A stretch of DNA of 64,000 nt from Candidatus Dormibacteria bacterium (GCA_050734515.1 JBOHUM010000029.1:8513-72512); one strand, 5' to 3'; positions 16,813-24,251 are shown, counted from the first letter of the stretch. Notes: generated from the letters alone by a model not told the origin. Made by a program: numbers and translations.

Positions 16813-17304
16813 ATGCTGGAGGGCCCGCCGCCAACACCGCTCAGGCGCGGCCGTGGCCCCACCCTGCTGGTCGTCGCCGGCTTGATGCTGGCCCTGCTCC
16901 TCAGCGGCTGCAGCTTCTTCGGCGACAACGGCGCCCCCACCTCGGCTCACGGCCAGATCCAGCCCGGGAACCCGGTGCCCCAGAAGGACAGCAACCTCCA
17001 GATCAAGGCGCTGCCCCACCCACCCGGCAGCCCCGACTACCGGGTGATCATCTACCACAACGACAACACCGTGGGCGAGTTCGTGCCCGAGCAGCTGACA
17101 GTGCCGGTGGGCTCGGTTGTCGAATGGGTATGGACCGATCAGTACGACCAGCACAACGTCTGGTGGATCGACCAGAATCTGATCAACTCCCCCACCAAGG
17201 GGGCGGGCTACCGCTGGGCGGTGCGCTTCGTCGCCCCCGGTGTCTACGACTACTACTGCACCCTCCACCCCGGCATGCTGGGCCGTGTGGTCGTCACTGG
17301 TTAG
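16813..17304 (+). CDS. cupredoxin (type-1 blue copper) lipoprotein
   Basis: Signal peptide with lipobox (LLLSGCS). C-terminal type-1 Cu site YYCTLHPGM (Cys-x2-His-x2-Met) with an upstream His (QHNVWW). The fold is plastocyanin/amicyanin-like. Confidence 0.72.
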   Translation: MLEGPPPTPLRRGRGPTLLVVAGLMLALLLSGCSFFGDNGAPTSAHGQIQPGNPVPQKDSNLQIKALPHPPGSPDYRVIIYHNDNTVGEFVPEQLTVPVGSVVEWVWTDQYDQHNVWWIDQNLINSPTKGAGYRWAVRFVAPGVYDYYCTLHPGMLGRVVVTG

Positions 17305-17719
17305 GCGGCCCCTCATCCGGGCCCTGAGCGGCGCCGCGACTCTCGCCGCTGGGGGCGCGCTGCTCAGCGCCTGCATCGGCCCGGCGGTCCCGGCCACCCA
17401 CGCCCTCAACAACTGGCTGGCCGACGTCAGGGCCCACTCGGTCGCCTACGCCTACACCCTGCTCAGCAGCCAGGCGGAGATGAGGACTGACTACGACCAG
17501 TTCTTCGACGGGGTCAACCACACCCGGGCCAGCTACCGGATCCTTGCTACCAGGACCGTCTCCTCCACCGAGGTCACGGCGGTGGTCGAGGTCAGCAACG
17601 GCTCGTCGGCCCCAACCCGGGTCAGAGTGCAGATGATCGAGGAGGGCAACGCCGGCGACTGGCTGGTGGGTGAGCCTTTCACCGGCCAGGGGGCGAGGGC
17701 GATCCGCTACTTCAAGTAG
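17285..17719 (+). CDS. hypothetical lipoprotein
   Basis: A GTG at 17285 gives MWSSLVRRPLIRALSGAATLAAGGALLSAC, a signal peptide with lipobox LSAC. The mature part is 120 aa and hydrophilic. The track's ATG at 17240 would overlap the cupredoxin gene by 65 nt. Confidence 0.5.
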   Translation: MWSSLVRRPLIRALSGAATLAAGGALLSACIGPAVPATHALNNWLADVRAHSVAYAYTLLSSQAEMRTDYDQFFDGVNHTRASYRILATRTVSSTEVTAVVEVSNGSSAPTRVRVQMIEEGNAGDWLVGEPFTGQGARAIRYFK

Positions 17720-17820: not shown

Positions 17821-18018
17821 CTAGTGGGCCGATCGCCGTCCGACCAGCCAATAGGCGAGGGCTCCCAGGGTGTTCAGGGCGCTGGCAAGGCGCCACAGGC
17901 CCTGACTACCCCGCACCTGTTCCGGCGGGCGGCGGCCGAGGTCGCGCCAGGTGAACGCGACCACGGCGAGGTGGATGGGCAGGTAGCTGAGCAGTGCCCT
18001 GACGGACTTGTTGGTCAT
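17821..18018 (-). CDS. PLDc_N-like small membrane protein
   Basis: 65-aa product starting MTNKSVRALLSYLPIHLAVVAFTWRDL and ending ALAYWLVGRR. This resembles the short 'phospholipase_D-nuclease N-terminal' membrane micro-proteins. The upstream part of the track ORF is Pro/Arg-rich and non-protein-like. Confidence 0.5.
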   Translation of the reverse strand: MTNKSVRALLSYLPIHLAVVAFTWRDLGRRPPEQVRGSQGLWRLASALNTLGALAYWLVGRRSAH

Positions 18019-18199
18019 GGTGTTGCCTTCCGGGAATCGGTGGGATGTGGGTCCGGGCCGCCGGGGACGGAGGCGCCTGGCCCGAGGCTTGTCGGCGGCT
18101 TGGGGTGGCGATCCTGAACCGACGCCGCCTGGGCTTGGCACTTGGGAAAGTCGCTCCTCACCGGCCCGCACGGCGGCCGAGCTCGGCTGTGGGCCCGGC

Positions 18200-18607
18200 T
18201 CAGGCGCCGTCGGCACCGGGCGCCGGGCTCACCTGCACCGGACGATCGCTGCCGTTCTCCAGGAAGGGCAGCAGCTGGTCCGAGACCCCGATCTGCCGGA
18301 GCTTGGCCCAGCCCGCCTCGGGGGAAAGCTCGCAGCTGACCACGATGTCGTCCCCCACCACCACGATCTCCCACTCCAGCACCTCCAGGCGTCGCAGCAG
18401 GTCTGAGATCAGGGTGAGGCGGCTCTTGATTTCGTGGCCCACGGCGGCCAGGCGCACCGAAACCGGGATCCGGTCGGCGGAGGGCCGGTCGGGAAAGGCG
18501 AACGAGCGGACCTCGAAATAGGTCAGCAGCGAGATCGGGATCGGCTCCTTGGTCACGTGGGCGTACTCGGCCGCCGCCCGGGCGATGGGCCGCAGGACCA
18601 GCTTCAC
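18200..18607 (-). CDS. hypothetical protein (last gene of the bc/bd-like operon)
   Basis: A GTG at 18607 overlaps the stop of the upstream gene (GTGA). The 135-aa product (VKLVLRPIARAAAEYAHVTKEPIPISLLTYFEV…IVVVGDDIVVSCEL…) has a protein-like composition. The N-terminal 170 codons of the track ORF 18200-19120 are Arg/Pro-rich antisense artefact. Confidence 0.5.
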   Translation of the reverse strand: MKLVLRPIARAAAEYAHVTKEPIPISLLTYFEVRSFAFPDRPSADRIPVSVRLAAVGHEIKSRLTLISDLLRRLEVLEWEIVVVGDDIVVSCELSPEAGWAKLRQIGVSDQLLPFLENGSDRPVQVSPAPGADGA

Positions 18608-19998
18608 GGTCGGGTTGCCGGGGGCAGTATCACGCTCACGCTGGGCGGGCCCTGCATGGCGGGACCGGACTGGGATGGCGCCGAGAAGTTGCGCTGCTGG
18701 TTGATCAGCATCTGGTTGGTGATCAGGAACGGAGCACGGCTGTGCTCGCGTATGTAGCCCATCAGGGCCATGATCAGGCTGACCGCGACGCCCACGGTGA
18801 TCAGCGCCACCGCCTGCCCCTTGGTGGCGTCGCCCCAGCGCAGCCGGCCTCGGGAGACCTGGCGCAGGTAGATGGTGACGGCCACGATCGCCACCCCGGT
18901 GAAGACGGTCAGGGCGGTGAGCTTGAAGGGGATCATCGTTCCCCAGGGGATCTGCAAGCCGCCCTGCCAGATGGGCACGTTGGCGTTGGCGGCGAAGACG
19001 TCTTCGTAGCTCCACGACAGGGAAGCGGGGGTCGAGATCAGCAGCCAGGAGGCGAACGAGAGCGCGGTACAGACCGCCAGGGTGCGCGAGCGGAAGCCGC
19101 TGGCCCGGACCCGGCGCCACAGGTAGTAGATCCCCACGGTGAAGATCGCCCCCAGCAGAAAGACCTGGAAGAGGAAGGCGACGCTGAGGCCGCCCAGCAT
19201 CATGCTGTACCAGGCGGCGTAGGAGTGGAGTTGAACCTCCTTGGCGTACTCCCAGCCGATCAGGGGCTGGGCCAGGGTGAAGCCGATCGCGTAGATCAGC
19301 CCATAGTGGCCGATCCAGTCGCCGTAGGCTCGCTTCTCGCCGGTCTTGGAGATCAGGATCTTGACCCCCCCCGCCAGCGCCAGCAGCGCCCCGGCGAAGG
19401 CGATGTTGCCAACGAAGCGGTGAATCTCCAACGGGATCAGGGTGGGATTGAGCAGGTTGAGGGCCAGACTGGCCGCCGGGCGGGGGGTGAGCATGTAGGA
19501 GGCGACCACGTTGATGGCCAGCATCTGGATCGAGGCGTTGACGAACAGCAGCAGTTCGAGTCCGACCCGCAGCCCCCGCACCCGCTCTAGCTTGTCGAAG
19601 TTGGCGTAGACGGCGTAGAGGCAGATGATCTCGCCCACGAAGGCGAAGGCCTCCACCACCATCGGCCAGAACATGATCCGCAGCAGGGTCACGAAGAAGT
19701 GACTCCAGAGGCCGAGGAACAGGATCATGACGGCGAAGATCGCCAGGGCGGAGCCGAAGGCGAAGGTCGCCCCCAGAGCGGTCACCAGCTGCTTGGAGAA
19801 GCGGGTCTGGCGCTCGTCGTGCCGCTTCCAGCCGACGAAGTCGGTGACGGCCAGGATGATGTAGCCGCCCTGCTGCCAGGCGGCGAACTGGATGTGCACC
19901 AGCATCAGCAGCGCCACCAGCGCGGTGGCGACGCCGGTGGAGATGGGGAGCTTGACCAGGTGGGGGCTGCTGGCCAGCAGTAGCAGGCCGTCCCTCAC
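18604..19998 (-). CDS. cytochrome bd-type oxidase subunit I-like protein (CydA homologue 2)
   Basis: 464-aa polytopic membrane protein. It aligns to CydA helices 1-5. The His19 equivalent is MLVHIQF, the E99/E107 equivalents are PMVVEAFAFVGE, and the His186 equivalent is EIHRFVGNIAFAG. The Q-loop is short. Overlaps the cytochrome b stop by 4 nt. Confidence 0.7.
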   Translation of the reverse strand: MRDGLLLLASSPHLVKLPISTGVATALVALLMLVHIQFAAWQQGGYIILAVTDFVGWKRHDERQTRFSKQLVTALGATFAFGSALAIFAVMILFLGLWSHFFVTLLRIMFWPMVVEAFAFVGEIICLYAVYANFDKLERVRGLRVGLELLLFVNASIQMLAINVVASYMLTPRPAASLALNLLNPTLIPLEIHRFVGNIAFAGALLALAGGVKILISKTGEKRAYGDWIGHYGLIYAIGFTLAQPLIGWEYAKEVQLHSYAAWYSMMLGGLSVAFLFQVFLLGAIFTVGIYYLWRRVRASGFRSRTLAVCTALSFASWLLISTPASLSWSYEDVFAANANVPIWQGGLQIPWGTMIPFKLTALTVFTGVAIVAVTIYLRQVSRGRLRWGDATKGQAVALITVGVAVSLIMALMGYIREHSRAPFLITNQMLINQQRNFSAPSQSGPAMQGPPSVSVILPPATRP

Positions 19999-21221
19999 AG
20001 GTTGAAGAGCCGGTTCACGGCCAGCAGCGCTTCGAAGACGAGGAAAAGGACCGCGAAGAGCGCCGGAACCATCACCTCGGGGCGCCGCCAGGGTTCACGT
20101 GCCGGGCCCCGGTCGAGGAAGGGCACCAGGATCAGCAAGGTGGTGCCAATCCCGGGCAGGACGAAGACCCCGACCGGGATCATCCAGGCCTGGGGGAACT
20201 GGACCAGCAGTTGGTCAAGGGGCAGGAAGAACCACTCCGGAACCGGGACGTAGTTGAGGGCGGCAGGGTTGGCCGCCCGCTCCAGGGGTGCGCCCACCAC
20301 CACCGCCATGACGAACACGATCGCAACCAGCGCAAAGCTCAGCACGGCGTCCTTGAAGACCTGGGAGGGGAAGAAGTCGTCCAGGTCGACGGGGACCGCG
20401 TAGCCGGGGTCGGTGGGCACCGCCGGGTAGGGGTACTCGGCCTTGCTCATCCGGGCGGCCCGAGCCTCCTCGGTCTCCGTCTCCACTCCCTCGTAGTTCA
20501 CCCAGGAGCCGTGCTCGCCGTGGCGGCGGAGCAGGACCAGGTGGAGCAGGATCAGCGGCACCAGCAGGGCTGGCAGCAGCCAGATGTGGATGGCGAAGAA
20601 ACGGGTCAGGGTCTCCGGGCCCATCTGCGGGCCGCCCCGGAGGATGGCCTGGATCTGAGCGCCGAAGAGGGGGATGTAGTTGACGACGTGGGTGACCACG
20701 GTGGCGGTCCAGTAGGCGGCCTGGTCCCAGGGGAGCATGGCCCCGGTGATCCCCAGGCCCAGGACCAGAAGGAAGAGGATCACGCCCACGATCCAGTTGA
20801 GCTCGCGGGGCTTCTTGTAGGAGCCGCTGACGAAGGTCCGCAGCATGTGCATGCCGATCACCACGAAGAGCACGTAGGCGCCCCAGAGGTGCATGCCCCG
20901 GACGATGGCCGCGAACTCGTCGTGGCGCTCGATGTAGTTGAGGCTCCCCCAGGCCTCGGTGGTCGAGGGGACGTAGGTCCAGAGCAGGAACATCCCGGTG
21001 ACGATCTGGAGGACGATGATGATCAGGGTGGCGCTGCCCAGCGAGTAGGCCCAGGCCCCGCGCCGGGGAACCGCCTCGTAGAGGAGCTGGTGGGTCAGGT
21101 CCGAGACCCCCAGCCGCTCGTCCACCCAGCGGTAGGTGGCCGCCAGGGGGCGGGCCACCGGGCGGGTGAACTTGGCAAGCAGGTTGCTGCGCTCGACCCG
21201 CTCAGCCATTGGCCGCCTCAC
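19995..21221 (-). CDS. qcrB: cytochrome b (bc-complex, fused b6 + subunit IV type)
   Basis: 408 aa. Heme-ligand His pairs sit in helices B and D (GMHLWGAYVLF…HMLR; FFAIHIWLLPALL…HLVLL). PEW-like Qo motif (VPVPEWFFLP). Confidence 0.9.
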   Translation of the reverse strand: MRRPMAERVERSNLLAKFTRPVARPLAATYRWVDERLGVSDLTHQLLYEAVPRRGAWAYSLGSATLIIIVLQIVTGMFLLWTYVPSTTEAWGSLNYIERHDEFAAIVRGMHLWGAYVLFVVIGMHMLRTFVSGSYKKPRELNWIVGVILFLLVLGLGITGAMLPWDQAAYWTATVVTHVVNYIPLFGAQIQAILRGGPQMGPETLTRFFAIHIWLLPALLVPLILLHLVLLRRHGEHGSWVNYEGVETETEEARAARMSKAEYPYPAVPTDPGYAVPVDLDDFFPSQVFKDAVLSFALVAIVFVMAVVVGAPLERAANPAALNYVPVPEWFFLPLDQLLVQFPQAWMIPVGVFVLPGIGTTLLILVPFLDRGPAREPWRRPEVMVPALFAVLFLVFEALLAVNRLFNL

Positions 21222-21729
21222 CGGTGAGATTGTTGCGGACGTAGAGCGTGTTGCCCACCAGCTTGTGCTGGTAGCGGAAGAGCGGCCAGGGCGGCGGTCC
21301 GCCGATGTTGGTGCCGTCGATGCTGTAGAGCCCCCCGTGGCAGGGGCAGAGGAACTCCTGCAGGTTGAGGTCCCAATGGACGTCGCACTGCATGTGGGTG
21401 CAGATGTTGGAGAGGGTCAGCATCTGCACCTTGCCATTGAGGTTGAGCTTGACCACGTAGACGGTGCGCGGCACGGGCGGCACCTGCCAGCCCTCGTCGA
21501 TGGGCAGGTTGACCACGTAGGCGGTGGGGACGCCCACCGCCACCTGGCCGACGTCCGCCACCATCACCCAAGGGGTGCGCCGCCGGGCGAACACCGGGCT
21601 CAGCACCGAGCCCACGATCGGGGCGGCGATCAGCAGGGCGGTGCCGGCACCGGCGGCATTGATGCCCAGGAGCAGAAAGCGGCGGCGGGACATCCGCCGC
21701 CCGCCCGGCTGGCCGGGTTCCTCAGCCAC
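21202..21729 (-). CDS. qcrA: Rieske [2Fe-2S] protein with twin-arginine signal
   Basis: 175 aa. TAT motif SRRRFLLLG, one TM helix, and the Rieske boxes CTHMQC and CPCHGG. This is the short b6f-type length, not the ~400-aa three-TM actinobacterial QcrA. Confidence 0.9.
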   Translation of the reverse strand: MAEEPGQPGGRRMSRRRFLLLGINAAGAGTALLIAAPIVGSVLSPVFARRRTPWVMVADVGQVAVGVPTAYVVNLPIDEGWQVPPVPRTVYVVKLNLNGKVQMLTLSNICTHMQCDVHWDLNLQEFLCPCHGGLYSIDGTNIGGPPPWPLFRYQHKLVGNTLYVRNNLTGEAANG

Positions 21730-21955
21730 CCGCCAGGACCACGATCCCGACCAGGAGGGCCAGGCAAAGTCCGAGGATGAAGAGGAAGGTGTAGATCGAG
21801 GCCCCCACCGAGATCCAGGCCACCATCGGGTCGCCGCCGGCGGTGAGCCGGCGTACCCGCCTGGCCACCATCCTTATCCCCACCAGCATCAGGGCGAAGA
21901 AGCTGGCGATGAGCAGGCCCAGGTACCAGGAGGATTCGAAGTCCTGGTAGTTCAA
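21722..21955 (-). CDS. two-TM micro-protein (candidate small oxidase subunit)
   Basis: A TTG at 21955 overlaps the TGA stop of the upstream cydA-like gene (TTGA). The 77-aa product has two hydrophobic helices (SSWYLGLLIASFFALMLVGI; MVAWISVGASIYTFLFILGLCLALLVGIVVLAGG). It overlaps the Rieske start by 8 nt. An alternative start is the ATG at 21889. Confidence 0.45.
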   Translation of the reverse strand: MNYQDFESSWYLGLLIASFFALMLVGIRMVARRVRRLTAGGDPMVAWISVGASIYTFLFILGLCLALLVGIVVLAGG

Positions 21956-23241
21956 GGCTGGTAGCTCGGGGGGATGGTGAAGTTCTGGGCCGACTGATGC
22001 AGGCTGAGCAGGCAGCCTGGCTGGCCCTTGGCGGCGTCGATGCCACAGGGCAGCTTGGCGTTCTCCTTGATCACCCCCATATACAGGGAGAGGGCCAGGG
22101 CGCAGACCCCGACCAGGGCGATCGCTCGACCCGCCACCGGGGGGATCTGCAGGTCGGTACCCCGCCGCCGCAGCGAGCGGATGTAGAGCACCAGATTGGC
22201 GGCGGTGGCCAAGAACGCGATCAGCAGGGCAACGTAGCGCAGGGCCACCACCGAGCTGGGGATGATGCCCGCGGGCAGCACCGCCCCGGCCATCCCCAGC
22301 AGAGCGATCACGGTCAGGCTGCCTCCGCCGGCACCCTCGTGGTGGCGCCAGAAGACCAGGTTGGCCCCCAGCACCACCACCGCCAGCAGCACCACCTGGC
22401 CGATGAAGAGCGAGGCGGAGTTGAGCACGAAGAGGTTGTCGTAGACGGGGATGGCGCTGTTCTTGATCGACTCCGCGAGGATGAAGCCGGTGACCGGCTG
22501 GGCGAGCAGGAACACCGAGCCGATGGCGAAGTTGACCCGAGCCGCCCAGCGCTGGTAGGTGACCTCGGCCGGGTTGCGGGCCCGCCGCCCCCGCCAGATG
22601 GCGATCGCCGCCAGCAGCAGCGCCCCCCAGGAGAGGTTGGCGCCGGCGTAGTGGAGCAAGAGCCAGGGATAGCTCGGGGACCAGGGCGAGGCCACGGCGC
22701 TGCCGGGGTTGAGGGCGTAGCTGTCCAGCTGCACGATGAGGAAGAGGAAGGCGTACTGGAAGATGGCGAAGAGGAAGCCCACCGCCAGGTGCAGCTTGGC
22801 GCCCAAGCGATCCCATCCGTACACGTAGATGAGCAGCAAGGGGATGCCGACGAAGAAGCTGGCGAAGGCGATCGTGAGGGGCAGCAGCAGCTGGTTGAGC
22901 AGGGTCCCCACCAGCCGTCCGTAGAGGCCGGTCAGCAGCACCACGGCGAAGACCGCCCAGGTCGCCCCCAGGCTGTACAGGTAGAGCACCGAGTGAGCCA
23001 GGCGCCGGGCGTAGCGGAGGCACATCGGGTCGCCCCCCCGGCGTAGCCCCGCCAGCTCCATGAAGGGGGCCAGGCCGGAGGCGGCCAGGACGAAGCCCAC
23101 CAGGGCGATGTGGAGCAGGAAGACGGTGCCGATGGCCAGTTCCGCGCCCAGGGTCCCGAATGGCAGCCGCGGATTGGCGATCGCGAGCGAGGACACCAGC
23201 ACTTCGCCCCAATGCTGACGGCAGCGGCCACCCCAAGGCAA
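21952..23241 (-). CDS. cytochrome bd-type oxidase subunit I-like protein (CydA homologue 1)
   Basis: 429 aa. It has a CydA-like helix 1 His (FLLHIALVGF), a GWDRLG motif identical to the CydA helix 3/4 loop, and a second His (LLLHYAG). The E99/E107 positions are Thr/Val. There is no long Q-loop. The start may be an internal GTG near 23190. Confidence 0.7.
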   Translation of the reverse strand: MPWGGRCRQHWGEVLVSSLAIANPRLPFGTLGAELAIGTVFLLHIALVGFVLAASGLAPFMELAGLRRGGDPMCLRYARRLAHSVLYLYSLGATWAVFAVVLLTGLYGRLVGTLLNQLLLPLTIAFASFFVGIPLLLIYVYGWDRLGAKLHLAVGFLFAIFQYAFLFLIVQLDSYALNPGSAVASPWSPSYPWLLLHYAGANLSWGALLLAAIAIWRGRRARNPAEVTYQRWAARVNFAIGSVFLLAQPVTGFILAESIKNSAIPVYDNLFVLNSASLFIGQVVLLAVVVLGANLVFWRHHEGAGGGSLTVIALLGMAGAVLPAGIIPSSVVALRYVALLIAFLATAANLVLYIRSLRRRGTDLQIPPVAGRAIALVGVCALALSLYMGVIKENAKLPCGIDAAKGQPGCLLSLHQSAQNFTIPPSYQP

Positions 23242-23297
23242 CTCCCCAACTGCCGCGCTGCAGGCCCCCAGCCCCCGGCGCCCGGATAATCGCCGAG

Positions 23298-24251
23298 GTG
23301 CCCGAGCCCCTAGTCGTCGTCTACGGCGACGACCCCCACCTGGTGACCACTGAGGCCCTGCGGCTGCGCGACCAGCTCGCCCGAGAGCTGGGCTCGGAGC
23401 TGAGCCTGGAGGAGTTCCGGCGCAGCCGCGACCTCGACGCCATCGCCCAGAGCGTCGCCACCCCGCCCTTCCTCGCCCTGCGCCGGGTGGTGGTCCTCTG
23501 GGATCCCCCCCAACTGGAGGCGGGCCAGCGCGCCGACCGGGAAGCGGAGCGGCTGGCGACCTTGCTGGGGGAGCGCATGGAGACCACGGCGGTGGTGGTG
23601 GTGGGCCGGCAACCGGGAGCTGGCACCTCCGCGCTCCTACGCGCCCTCAAGGCCGCCGGCGCCGAGGTCCGGCGGCTGCAGCGGCCCCGCGGGCAGGAGC
23701 TCCGCCAGCACGTGCGCCGACGCTTGGAGGAGCGGCGGCTGCGCGTCGGCCGGGGAGTGCTGGAGCGACTGCTGGACGTGGCCGCCCGCGACATGGGGCA
23801 GCTGGAGCAAGAGCTGGAGAAGCTCGAGCTCTACACCGGGGGCTCGGCAGAGCTGGCCGACGGGGTGGGCCTGCAGCTGGTGACCGCCGCCCCCCCGACC
23901 GAGGTCTACCGGATCACCGACGCCCTCTTCGAGACCCCCCGGCGGCTGGGTGAGCGCCTGGCGCTGGCCCCGGAGCTGCCGCCGCCGCTGGTGGTGGGTG
24001 CGCTGGCCCGGGTGCTCCGGGATCTCATCGCCCTGGCCGACCCGGAGCAGGCCCCGAGCGACCTTCCCCGATGGAGACAGGAGAAGCTGCAAAACCAGCT
24101 CCACCGGGCCGGCCCCGCCCGCCTGCGCCGCTGGCTGGTGCAGCTGGCCGACCTGGACTGGGCGGCACGCACCGGGGCGATCGAACTCTCCGAGGGCTTG
24201 GCCGCCGTCCTGGCGGGGATGGCCACCGAGCTGGCCAGCGCCGCCGCCTGA
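23298..24251 (+). CDS. holA: DNA polymerase III delta subunit
   Basis: The GTG at 23298 gives VPEPLVVVYGDDPHLV, the typical HolA N-terminus. Domains I-III are conserved (RRVVVLWDPPQL…ELEKLELYTGG). The track's ATG at 23160 would overlap the divergent cydA-like gene. Confidence 0.8.
   Translation: MPEPLVVVYGDDPHLVTTEALRLRDQLARELGSELSLEEFRRSRDLDAIAQSVATPPFLALRRVVVLWDPPQLEAGQRADREAERLATLLGERMETTAVVVVGRQPGAGTSALLRALKAAGAEVRRLQRPRGQELRQHVRRRLEERRLRVGRGVLERLLDVAARDMGQLEQELEKLELYTGGSAELADGVGLQLVTAAPPTEVYRITDALFETPRRLGERLALAPELPPPLVVGALARVLRDLIALADPEQAPSDLPRWRQEKLQNQLHRAGPARLRRWLVQLADLDWAARTGAIELSEGLAAVLAGMATELASAAA

Follow-up and report, generated by a model that had tools for sequence, protein, structure and literature searches.

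A glutamate asymmetry between two CydA-type paralogues encoded around Rieske and cytochrome b genes in Candidatus Dormibacteria

What kind of enzyme is encoded when two CydA paralogues lie on either side of Rieske and cytochrome b genes, and do both paralogues keep the glutamates that correspond to E99 and E107 of Escherichia coli CydA? The question is raised by a 64,000-nucleotide stretch of DNA from a Candidatus Dormibacteria bacterium (GCA_050734515.1, JBOHUM010000029.1:8513-72512; hereafter the window, with ~70% G+C across its 64 kb), in which a string of six genes runs on the minus strand from 23241 to 18200. Its best protein matches come from metagenome-assembled Candidatus Dormibacteria genomes, 100%-identical entries among them. 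These genes are, in order, copy 1 (the b-copy), a 77-aa open reading frame (ORF) with two transmembrane (TM) helices, the Rieske protein, cytochrome b, copy 2 (the a-copy) and a 135-aa ORF (Table 1). They form a translationally coupled operon, with a TTGA overlap, read from the sequence, between the stop of copy 1 and the start of the 77-aa ORF, and GTGA overlaps between the stop of cytochrome b and the start of copy 2 and between the stop of copy 2 and the start of the 135-aa ORF. An earlier note on this DNA held that only the downstream copy keeps the two glutamates, and suggested that the pair would combine a catalytic with a degenerate subunit in a manner parallel to CydA and CydB. The glutamate asymmetry is confirmed by the alignments described here, and the pair is likely to be of the OR-N5a/OR-N5b type, a bd-like oxidoreductase joined to a Rieske/cytochrome b module. 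The word degenerate, however, is too strong for copy 1, in which the proton-channel glutamates are lost and the set of haem-ligand residues is not.

Two CydA-type copies and their glutamates

The two copies are full-length paralogues (24% identity by BLASTP, E=5e-12), and the profiles of their families align over 398 columns (hhalign, E=1.5e-48). Their description as CydA paralogues holds, membership of the cytochrome bd superfamily being supported by Pfam PF01654, by family profiles and by AlphaFold2 (AF2) models compared through Foldseek. PF01654 (Cyt_bd_oxida_I) falls on the N-terminal half of copy 1 (E=1.9e-11) and is carried by many copy 2 orthologs. Copy 2 alone gave no match in Pfam, NCBIfam or the PDB sequences in single-sequence searches, so that its homology is visible only through copy 1 (BLASTP) and through its family profile. 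Family alignments were used as profiles against all PDB chain sequences (A1, n=53, for copy 2; A2, n=39, for copy 1). The copy 2 profile reached 5doq_A (1.1e-11), 7nkz_A (5.6e-07), 6rko_A (2.2e-05) and also 7d5i, the organisms matched being Geobacillus, Mycobacterium tuberculosis, M. smegmatis and E. coli (bd-I CydA), and the copy 1 profile reached 9r2g_A, the M. smegmatis qOR2 enzyme (3.5e-14), and 5doq_A (8e-10). The AF2 models built from the family alignments have mean predicted local distance difference test (pLDDT) scores of 80.7 for copy 2 and 82.5 for copy 1, and each contains ten long helices, with hydropathy consistent with about ten TM segments. For both models the ten best Foldseek matches in the PDB are CydA chains (E 2e-7 to 3e-4, probability 1.00, template-modelling score 0.43-0.63) from bd-I, bd-II, Geobacillus, Corynebacterium and Mycobacterium, and CydB chains rank three or more orders of magnitude weaker. 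Judged from these models, both copies are of CydA type and neither is a CydB. The two are old paralogues.

Given this framework, the glutamates can be placed residue by residue. Helix 3 of copy 2 aligns to Geobacillus CydA without a gap, with E116 on E101 and E123 on E108. Against E. coli CydA the same residues fall on E99 and E107, with a single gap opposite E. coli L101 that corresponds to a one-residue insertion in E. coli; the spacing between the two glutamates is seven in copy 2, as in Geobacillus (qOR3) and the M. smegmatis qOR2 enzyme, and eight in E. coli. The profile alignment likewise equates H35 with H19 and H193 with H186 (chain numbering), which together with E418 at the E445 position completes the key residues of copy 2; R144 occupies the H126 column, and Q158, invariant in the family, occupies the S140 column. 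In copy 1, numbered here on its 429-aa longest ORF, alignment to 9r2g and to 5doq CydA places Ala125 and Gly132 opposite the two glutamates and H44 and H197 at the H19 and H186 equivalents; H151 lies at the H126 position and E393 at the E445 position. The alignment of one family profile to the other gives the same pairing, E116 with A125, E123 with G132 and, at the C-terminus, E418 with E393. The earlier manual alignment had read Thr and Val at the glutamate positions of copy 1. These are Thr123 and Val131, and the reading was out of register by two residues and by one. A wrong register had been named as the finding that might overturn the claim; the register of copy 1 was indeed off, and the asymmetry is nevertheless kept, as neither copy 1 position is acidic. 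The helix-3 segment of copy 1 ahead of GWDRLG, PLTIAFASFFVGIPLLLIYVY, contains no Glu and no Asp, and hence no alignment register restores the glutamates. The claim that only the downstream copy keeps the E99/E107 equivalents is thus borne out by the profile-PDB and profile-profile alignments and, as set out below, by 79 related loci.

The likely true start of copy 1 is GTG 23202, which gives a protein of 416 aa and is supported by homologs and by NCBI. The TTG 23241 start of the longest ORF overlaps the 5' end of a divergent holA-like gene (23160..24251, DNA_pol3_delta), and even a start at GTG 23202 leaves copy 1 overlapping the holA ORF in its longest form (window 23160-23241), so that the starts of copy 1 and/or holA probably lie further in.

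Conservation and relation to OR-N5

A scan of one genome per GTDB species gave 159 copy 2 relatives, from which 79 distinct loci were kept; counts out of 80 are these loci plus the window. The loci belong to Dormibacterota, to Chloroflexota or to mislabelled bins of the same lineages, and every one with enough flank has the order b-copy, (small ORF), Rieske, cytochrome b, a-copy. Among the a-copies the equivalents of H35 (79/79), E116 (80/80), H193 (80/80) and E418 (78/78) are invariant, and position 123 is Glu in 66 and Gln in 14. Among the b-copies H44 is invariant (67/67), H197 is kept in 67 of 68, and E393 is Glu in 59 and Thr in nine. The E99 position of the b-copy is filled by Ala (64), Leu (two) or Gly (one) and the E107 position by Gly (38), Leu (16), Thr (eight), Ala (two) or Val (two), with neither Glu nor Asp at the two columns in any ortholog of the 79 loci or the window. 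On this record the asymmetry is not a matter of chance, and it is a fixed property of two orthologous families and not of this genome alone. Within the close clade the a-copies have a median identity of 76.1% to the window and the b-copies one of 69.5%; both copies are under purifying selection, and the b-copy evolves only slightly faster. Pseudogenisation of copy 1 was considered and rejected. By an exhaustive profile search the family amounts to 816 clusters (50% identity) with a threshold of E<=1e-3 and to 92 with one of E<=1e-30.

The H126 position behaves differently from the others. It is Arg in 64 and His in 16 of the a-copies, and an invariant His (67/67) in the glutamate-free b-copy, a pattern opposite to what a simple split into a catalytic and a degenerate subunit predicts.

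These features correspond closely to a branch of the bd superfamily already described. Murali, Gennis and Hemp (2021; bioRxiv 10.1101/2021.01.16.426971, later ISME J) split the superfamily into qOR, OR-C and OR-N, and state that the 'a' subfamilies keep E99/E107, that the 'b' subfamilies do not, and that all paralogues retain H19. They describe OR-N5a/b as proteins of about ten helices located with petA/petB/petD and propose them as an a/b complex with a proton channel in one partner only. For the reference OR-N5a/b pair, from Rubrobacter xylanophilus (WP_143528031.1 / WP_143528035.1), Supplementary Table 6 gives H24, E104, E111, Q146, H132, H183, E406 and no Met ligand in OR-N5a, and H34, A115, T122, H202 and S/E/T at the E445 position in OR-N5b; Supplementary Table 3 lists Dormibacterota as OR-N positive (10.1101/2021.01.16.426971). 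The window agrees with that description in having two ~10-TM CydA paralogues flanking petA/petB/petD-type genes. Its a-copy shares with OR-N5a the H19, E99 and E107 equivalents at a glutamate spacing of seven, Gln at S140, H186 and E445, and the lack of a Met ligand and of a Q-loop. Its b-copy shares with OR-N5b the H19 and H186 equivalents, Ala at E99, a non-acidic residue at E107 and a residue of the S/E/T set at E445. The differences are that cytochrome b is fused in the window and split in Rubrobacter, that the H126 position is Arg in the a-copy of the window and His in the OR-N5a reference, and that the b-copy keeps a Glu where E. coli has E445 and a His where E. coli has H126. The 77-aa and 135-aa genes of the Dormibacteria operon find no mention in the available part of the OR-N5 description of Murali et al. 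(2021).

Orthology to the published reference was tested indirectly, with R. taiwanensis as a proxy for the R. xylanophilus sequences. A profile search found the R. taiwanensis ortholog (P0155, E=4e-101), in which H24/E104/Q111/H183/E406 follow the reference numbering, within a locus (L080) of the order N5b-Rieske-petB-petD-N5a. Copy 2 and the R. taiwanensis N5a protein are reciprocal best hits (34% identity, 3e-62), as are copy 1 and the N5b protein (28% identity, 3e-37), with cross hits of about 1e-15. Because each copy is the reciprocal best hit of its own Rubrobacter counterpart and the cross hits are weaker, the duplication must be older than the operon's dispersal over these phyla; gene arrangement and asymmetry are kept in Dormibacterota, Chloroflexota and Rubrobacter. 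Assignment of the window pair to the OR-N5a/OR-N5b type, joined to the Rieske/cytochrome b module, is accordingly the reading that we regard as probable with some assurance. The glutamate asymmetry, the idea of an a/b complex and the presence of OR-N in Dormibacterota have all been known since 2021, and OR-N5 is a routine name in a Nitrospirales genomics paper of 2025, which describes the affinity of OR-N oxidases for O2 as not yet known. A Nitrospira-type OR-N1/N2 enzyme was also considered and rejected, as the 14 TM helices and the Tyr at the E99 position of that enzyme do not match.

Canonical CydAB enzymes (E. coli bd-I, 6RKO/6RX4, and bd-II, 7OSE/7OY2; Geobacillus, 5DOQ; Mycobacterium, 7NKZ/7D5I/9R2G) share with the window pair the CydA fold, including the N-terminal four-helix bundle with H19/E99/E107, H186 on TM5 and the C-terminal Glu in GxxxExxRxP. 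Unlike them, the window pair has no Q-loop or quinol site, M393, CydB, CydX or CydS; its partner is a second CydA-type protein, it has two extra TM helices and lacks the canonical TM9, and its genes are coupled to Rieske and cytochrome b. The archaeal CydAA' of Caldivirga maquilingensis (qOR4a/qOR4b) is similar in being built from two CydA paralogues, with E99/E107 in the 'a' protein only and H19 kept in the 'b' protein, and has been shown to reduce O2 with quinol. It differs in that qOR4a keeps the quinol site and M393 and has eight TM helices, that qOR4b lost H186, that the operon has no Rieske/cytochrome b genes and that the duplication is independent.

Mechanism, doubts and rival readings

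Following Murali et al. (2021), the Rieske/cytochrome b module would oxidise quinol at its Qo site, and, with no cytochrome c1 or f in between, the Rieske cluster would pass electrons to the periplasm-side haem that the H186-equivalent His holds in the bd-like subunits. Electrons would then reach the di-haem site of OR-N5a (H35, E418), where O2 would be reduced, with protons drawn from the cytoplasm through an E123/E116/Q158 channel that would be present in the a-copy only. OR-N5b would take the position of CydB and probably still carries haem, given that H44, H197, H151 and mostly E393 are kept. The catalytic-plus-degenerate pairing put forward in the earlier note therefore stands in part: the glutamates are lost from copy 1, and the likening to CydB in the sense of degeneracy fails on haem-ligand residues that are essentially invariant. 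A more ambitious version, in which OR-N5b is a second haem-bearing subunit of a c-cytochrome-free supercomplex with up to six bd-type haem sites, the 77-aa and 135-aa proteins being subunits as well, is possible and is offered tentatively. If true, such a supercomplex would couple the Q-cycle directly to O2 reduction and would contain two subunits not described so far.

The Q-loop region of copy 2 is short: in the AF2 model, TM6 and the TM helix that follows it are no more than some 30 residues apart (243-271). The alignment of copy 2 to E. coli CydA ends at residue 244, ahead of K252/E257, and a short conserved K253/E254/H258 segment in copy 2 is not in line with E. coli K252/E257. Two a-copy segments stand out here, the invariant periplasmic residues after TM6 (Y251, K253, E254, H258, W263, M266 and M267; window 19198-19245, minus strand) and a conserved loop, P342-x-W344-x-G346-G347...P351...P357 (window 18925-18975, minus strand), which is deleted in the b-copy. 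Both are candidates to provide the sixth ligand that is missing at the H193 haem, with H258, M266 and M267 as the candidate residues, or a site where a donor docks.

Several points weigh against the OR-N5 oxidoreductase reading. The second glutamate is Gln in 14/80 a-copies, R. taiwanensis among them, and is thus not strictly required. The C-terminal halves have no significant sequence alignment to solved CydA, the Pfam and PDB matches being confined to the N-terminal half, and a search of the PDB sequences with a profile confined to the two final helices of each family (A3) found no CydA and gave only chance matches (E>3). The proposed mapping of the conserved haem ligands onto solved CydA succeeded for H19, E99 and H186, which were placed, and fell short of sequence significance for E445 and M393. 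Since the C-terminal halves fail to align significantly, the E445 mapping has to draw on weaker supports, namely a sub-threshold HMMER stretch against 5doq, a motif common to both copies, G-x-I-(R/K)-E-x-x-(R/K)-x-P, the published table by way of the Rubrobacter ortholog, in which E418 (within GYIRE) corresponds to E406, and the similarity of the whole fold. The absence of M393 is suggested by a sub-threshold alignment to 5doq, in which the Met column of copy 2 is Leu, and by the published table. In addition, the conserved neighbouring cupredoxin would leave room for a different electron route, and the part of the literature available to us holds no biochemical or structural work on any OR-N5 enzyme. 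Haem binding, the a/b heterodimer, the Rieske contact and O2 reduction are all things that we infer from gene order and conservation.

Among the alternatives, the one that survives best, unlikely as we consider it, is that the complex is not an oxygen reductase and serves as a haem-b electron wire or feeds another acceptor, possibly with the cupredoxin as a mobile carrier. It is consistent with the missing quinol site and M393, with the type-1 copper lipoprotein that neighbours 24/40 close loci, and with a literature in which, to the extent available, OR-N5 activity has never been measured. Nonetheless, an H19/E99/E107/E445 set that is (near-)invariant in the a-copy is hard to explain without proton-coupled di-haem chemistry, the cupredoxin is absent beside the more distant orthologous operons, and CydAA', another a/b-type member, does reduce O2.

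Somewhat more doubtful is the earlier note taken literally, with copy 1 as a haem-free CydB-like scaffold and copy 2 as the sole cofactor-bearing subunit. Every copy 1 ortholog lacks both proton-channel glutamates, the slightly faster evolution of copy 1 points the same way, and its model also matches CydB chains, if more weakly (E 6e-4 to 9e-3). Yet the best structural matches of copy 1 are CydA chains, three to four orders of magnitude above CydB, and its H19, H186 and H126 equivalents are each kept by 67 of 67-68 orthologs, with Glu at the E445 equivalent in 59/68, whereas canonical CydB has none of these ligands; H19, moreover, is kept by all paralogues in the account of Murali et al.

Less credence still is due to a reading without a single heterodimer, in which each paralogue would act separately, for example as homodimers or as alternative partners of Rieske/cytochrome b. 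Three other genes do lie between the two copies, whose physical association is a prediction from gene order and conservation; against this, the copies co-occur strictly in one coupled operon in every locus with enough flank, have reciprocal orthologs across phyla and show complementary residue losses. It is highly improbable that the pair is a canonical CydAB-type quinol oxidase merely near a bc complex, in spite of the database label 'cytochrome ubiquinol oxidase subunit I' that copy 1 shares with several orthologs. The operon contains no CydB-type gene, both bd-like partners being of CydA type; there is no M393 equivalent, about 30 residues stand in place of the Q-loop, the NCBIfam CydA equivalog yields 8.1 bits where its cut-off is 968, and the genes are coupled to Rieske/cytochrome b, and on these tests the canonical reading is refuted. 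That the glutamate asymmetry is an alignment artefact, as the one- to two-residue slip in the manual copy 1 register might suggest, has next to no chance of being right and is ruled out by four independent alignments that agree (single sequence against 9r2g, profiles against 9r2g/5doq and against 5doq/6rko, and profile to profile) and by the acid-free helix 3 of copy 1.

OR-N is a large and biochemically uncharacterised branch of the bd superfamily, and its members may act as the terminal oxidases of nitrifying bacteria and of bacteria abundant in soil. With a bd-like oxidase wired straight to a Rieske/cytochrome b module, the functions of complexes III and IV would be joined in a new manner, an idea published in 2021. 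To this the window, as a further example, makes a modest addition, consisting of a residue map for one Dormibacteria pair, the haem-ligand residues kept in the b-copy and two conserved accessory genes.

Genes of the operon and its surroundings

Table 1. Features of the probable OR-N5-type operon and its surroundings, in window coordinates.
Feature	Position	Strand	Remarks
Copy 1, OR-N5b-type CydA paralogue, 429 aa (longest ORF, from TTG 23241)	21952..23241	-	Pfam, profile vs PDB, AF2/Foldseek, conservation and codons checked; H151 codon 22789-22791
Copy 1 helix-3 segment PLTIAFASFFVGIPLLLIYVYGWDRLG, residues 121-147	22801..22881	-	Ala125 22867-22869; Gly132 22846-22848
77-aa two-TM ORF, (M)NYQDFESSWYLGLL...LAGG, TTG start	21722..21955	-	Between copy 1 and Rieske; protein-level conservation
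Rieske [2Fe-2S] protein, up to 175 aa	21202..21729	-	Pfam PF00355; matches under the cut-off to NCBIfam models of the b6f/bc1 iron-sulfur subunit
Cytochrome b, 408 aa, fused b6-like PetB and subunit-IV-like PetD	19995..21221	-	Pfam PF00033 (6e-47), PF13631, PF00032; NCBIfam cytochrome b6 (1.5e-65)
Copy 2, OR-N5a-type CydA paralogue, 464 aa, GTG start	18604..19998	-	Family profile vs PDB, AF2/Foldseek, conservation and codons checked; R144 codon 19567-19569
Copy 2 helix-3 segment PMVVEAFAFVGEIICLYAVYANFDKLE, residues 112-138	19585..19665	-	E116 codon 19651-19653; E123 codon 19630-19632
135-aa soluble ORF, GTG start	18200..18607	-	Directly 3' of copy 2; N-terminus (V/M)(K/R)LV(L/I)RP conserved
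159-aa putative lipoprotein	17240-17719	+	Adjoins cupredoxin; convergent to operon
Type-1 copper protein (cupredoxin lipoprotein; H114, C149, H152, M155)	16813..17304	+	Pfam PF00127 (8.7e-08); convergent to operon

The placement of the pair inside a bc-linked operon, also part of the original proposal, stands, the Rieske and cytochrome b genes lying between the two copies, coupled to them and in the same order in related loci. In the Rieske protein the twin-arginine motif reads SRRRFLL and the cluster boxes read CTHMQC ... CPCH. Cytochrome b has its haem ligands at H111/H125 and H212/H227 (H-x14-H, helix D), a b6-type spacing, and the Qo motif PEWF, a variant of PEWY. By BLASTP to Rubrobacter its residues 3-265 correspond to PetB and residues 246-408 to PetD. 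The window and all related loci retained from the scan (Dormibacterota, Chloroflexota) have the fused form, whereas R. taiwanensis has PetB and PetD split into two genes (L080, 5624-6988). Cytochrome b contains no Cys and no CxxCH, and being without cysteine would carry no covalently bound haem ci; no CxxCH motif occurs in any protein of the operon, which thus encodes no c-type or f-type cytochrome subunit. The module shares with b6-type Rieske/cytochrome b complexes (b6f and the bc complexes of Firmicutes and Heliobacteria) a Rieske protein with a twin-arginine signal and CTH..CPCH boxes, the H-x13-H and H-x14-H pairs, a Qo motif of the form PEW(Y/F) and a C-terminal part that resembles subunit IV. 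Unlike them it has neither a cytochrome c1, f or di-haem c subunit nor a Cys for haem ci, and it has bd-like subunits on its flanks.

Downstream of the operon lies a small ORF of ~65 aa with two TM helices, MTNKSVRALL...GRRSAH (17821-18020, minus strand), whose PLDc_N-like match is weak and under the cut-off (E=0.034) and which was not found in the related loci. The cupredoxin scores below cut-off against the NCBIfam amicyanin and plastocyanin models. Its 159-aa neighbour is likewise found beside 23-24/40 close Dormibacteria loci and is absent near the more distant orthologs. The two are possible electron partners of the complex, the cupredoxin's membership of the system being uncertain.

The 77-aa ORF is kept in 38/40 close loci (median identity 59%) and weakly in about ten more distant ones, has a conserved N-terminus, NYQDFES(A/S)WY, and belongs to no Pfam or NCBIfam family; its product is a candidate small subunit of the complex. 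A relationship to COX1 was rejected, the match being sub-threshold and probably compositional (E=0.008; 15.5 bits, with the cut-off at 34.8). The 135-aa ORF, with no match in Pfam or NCBIfam, directly follows the a-copy in about 40 loci, and its product could be an assembly factor or a cytoplasmic subunit. Expression of the complex should include both genes.

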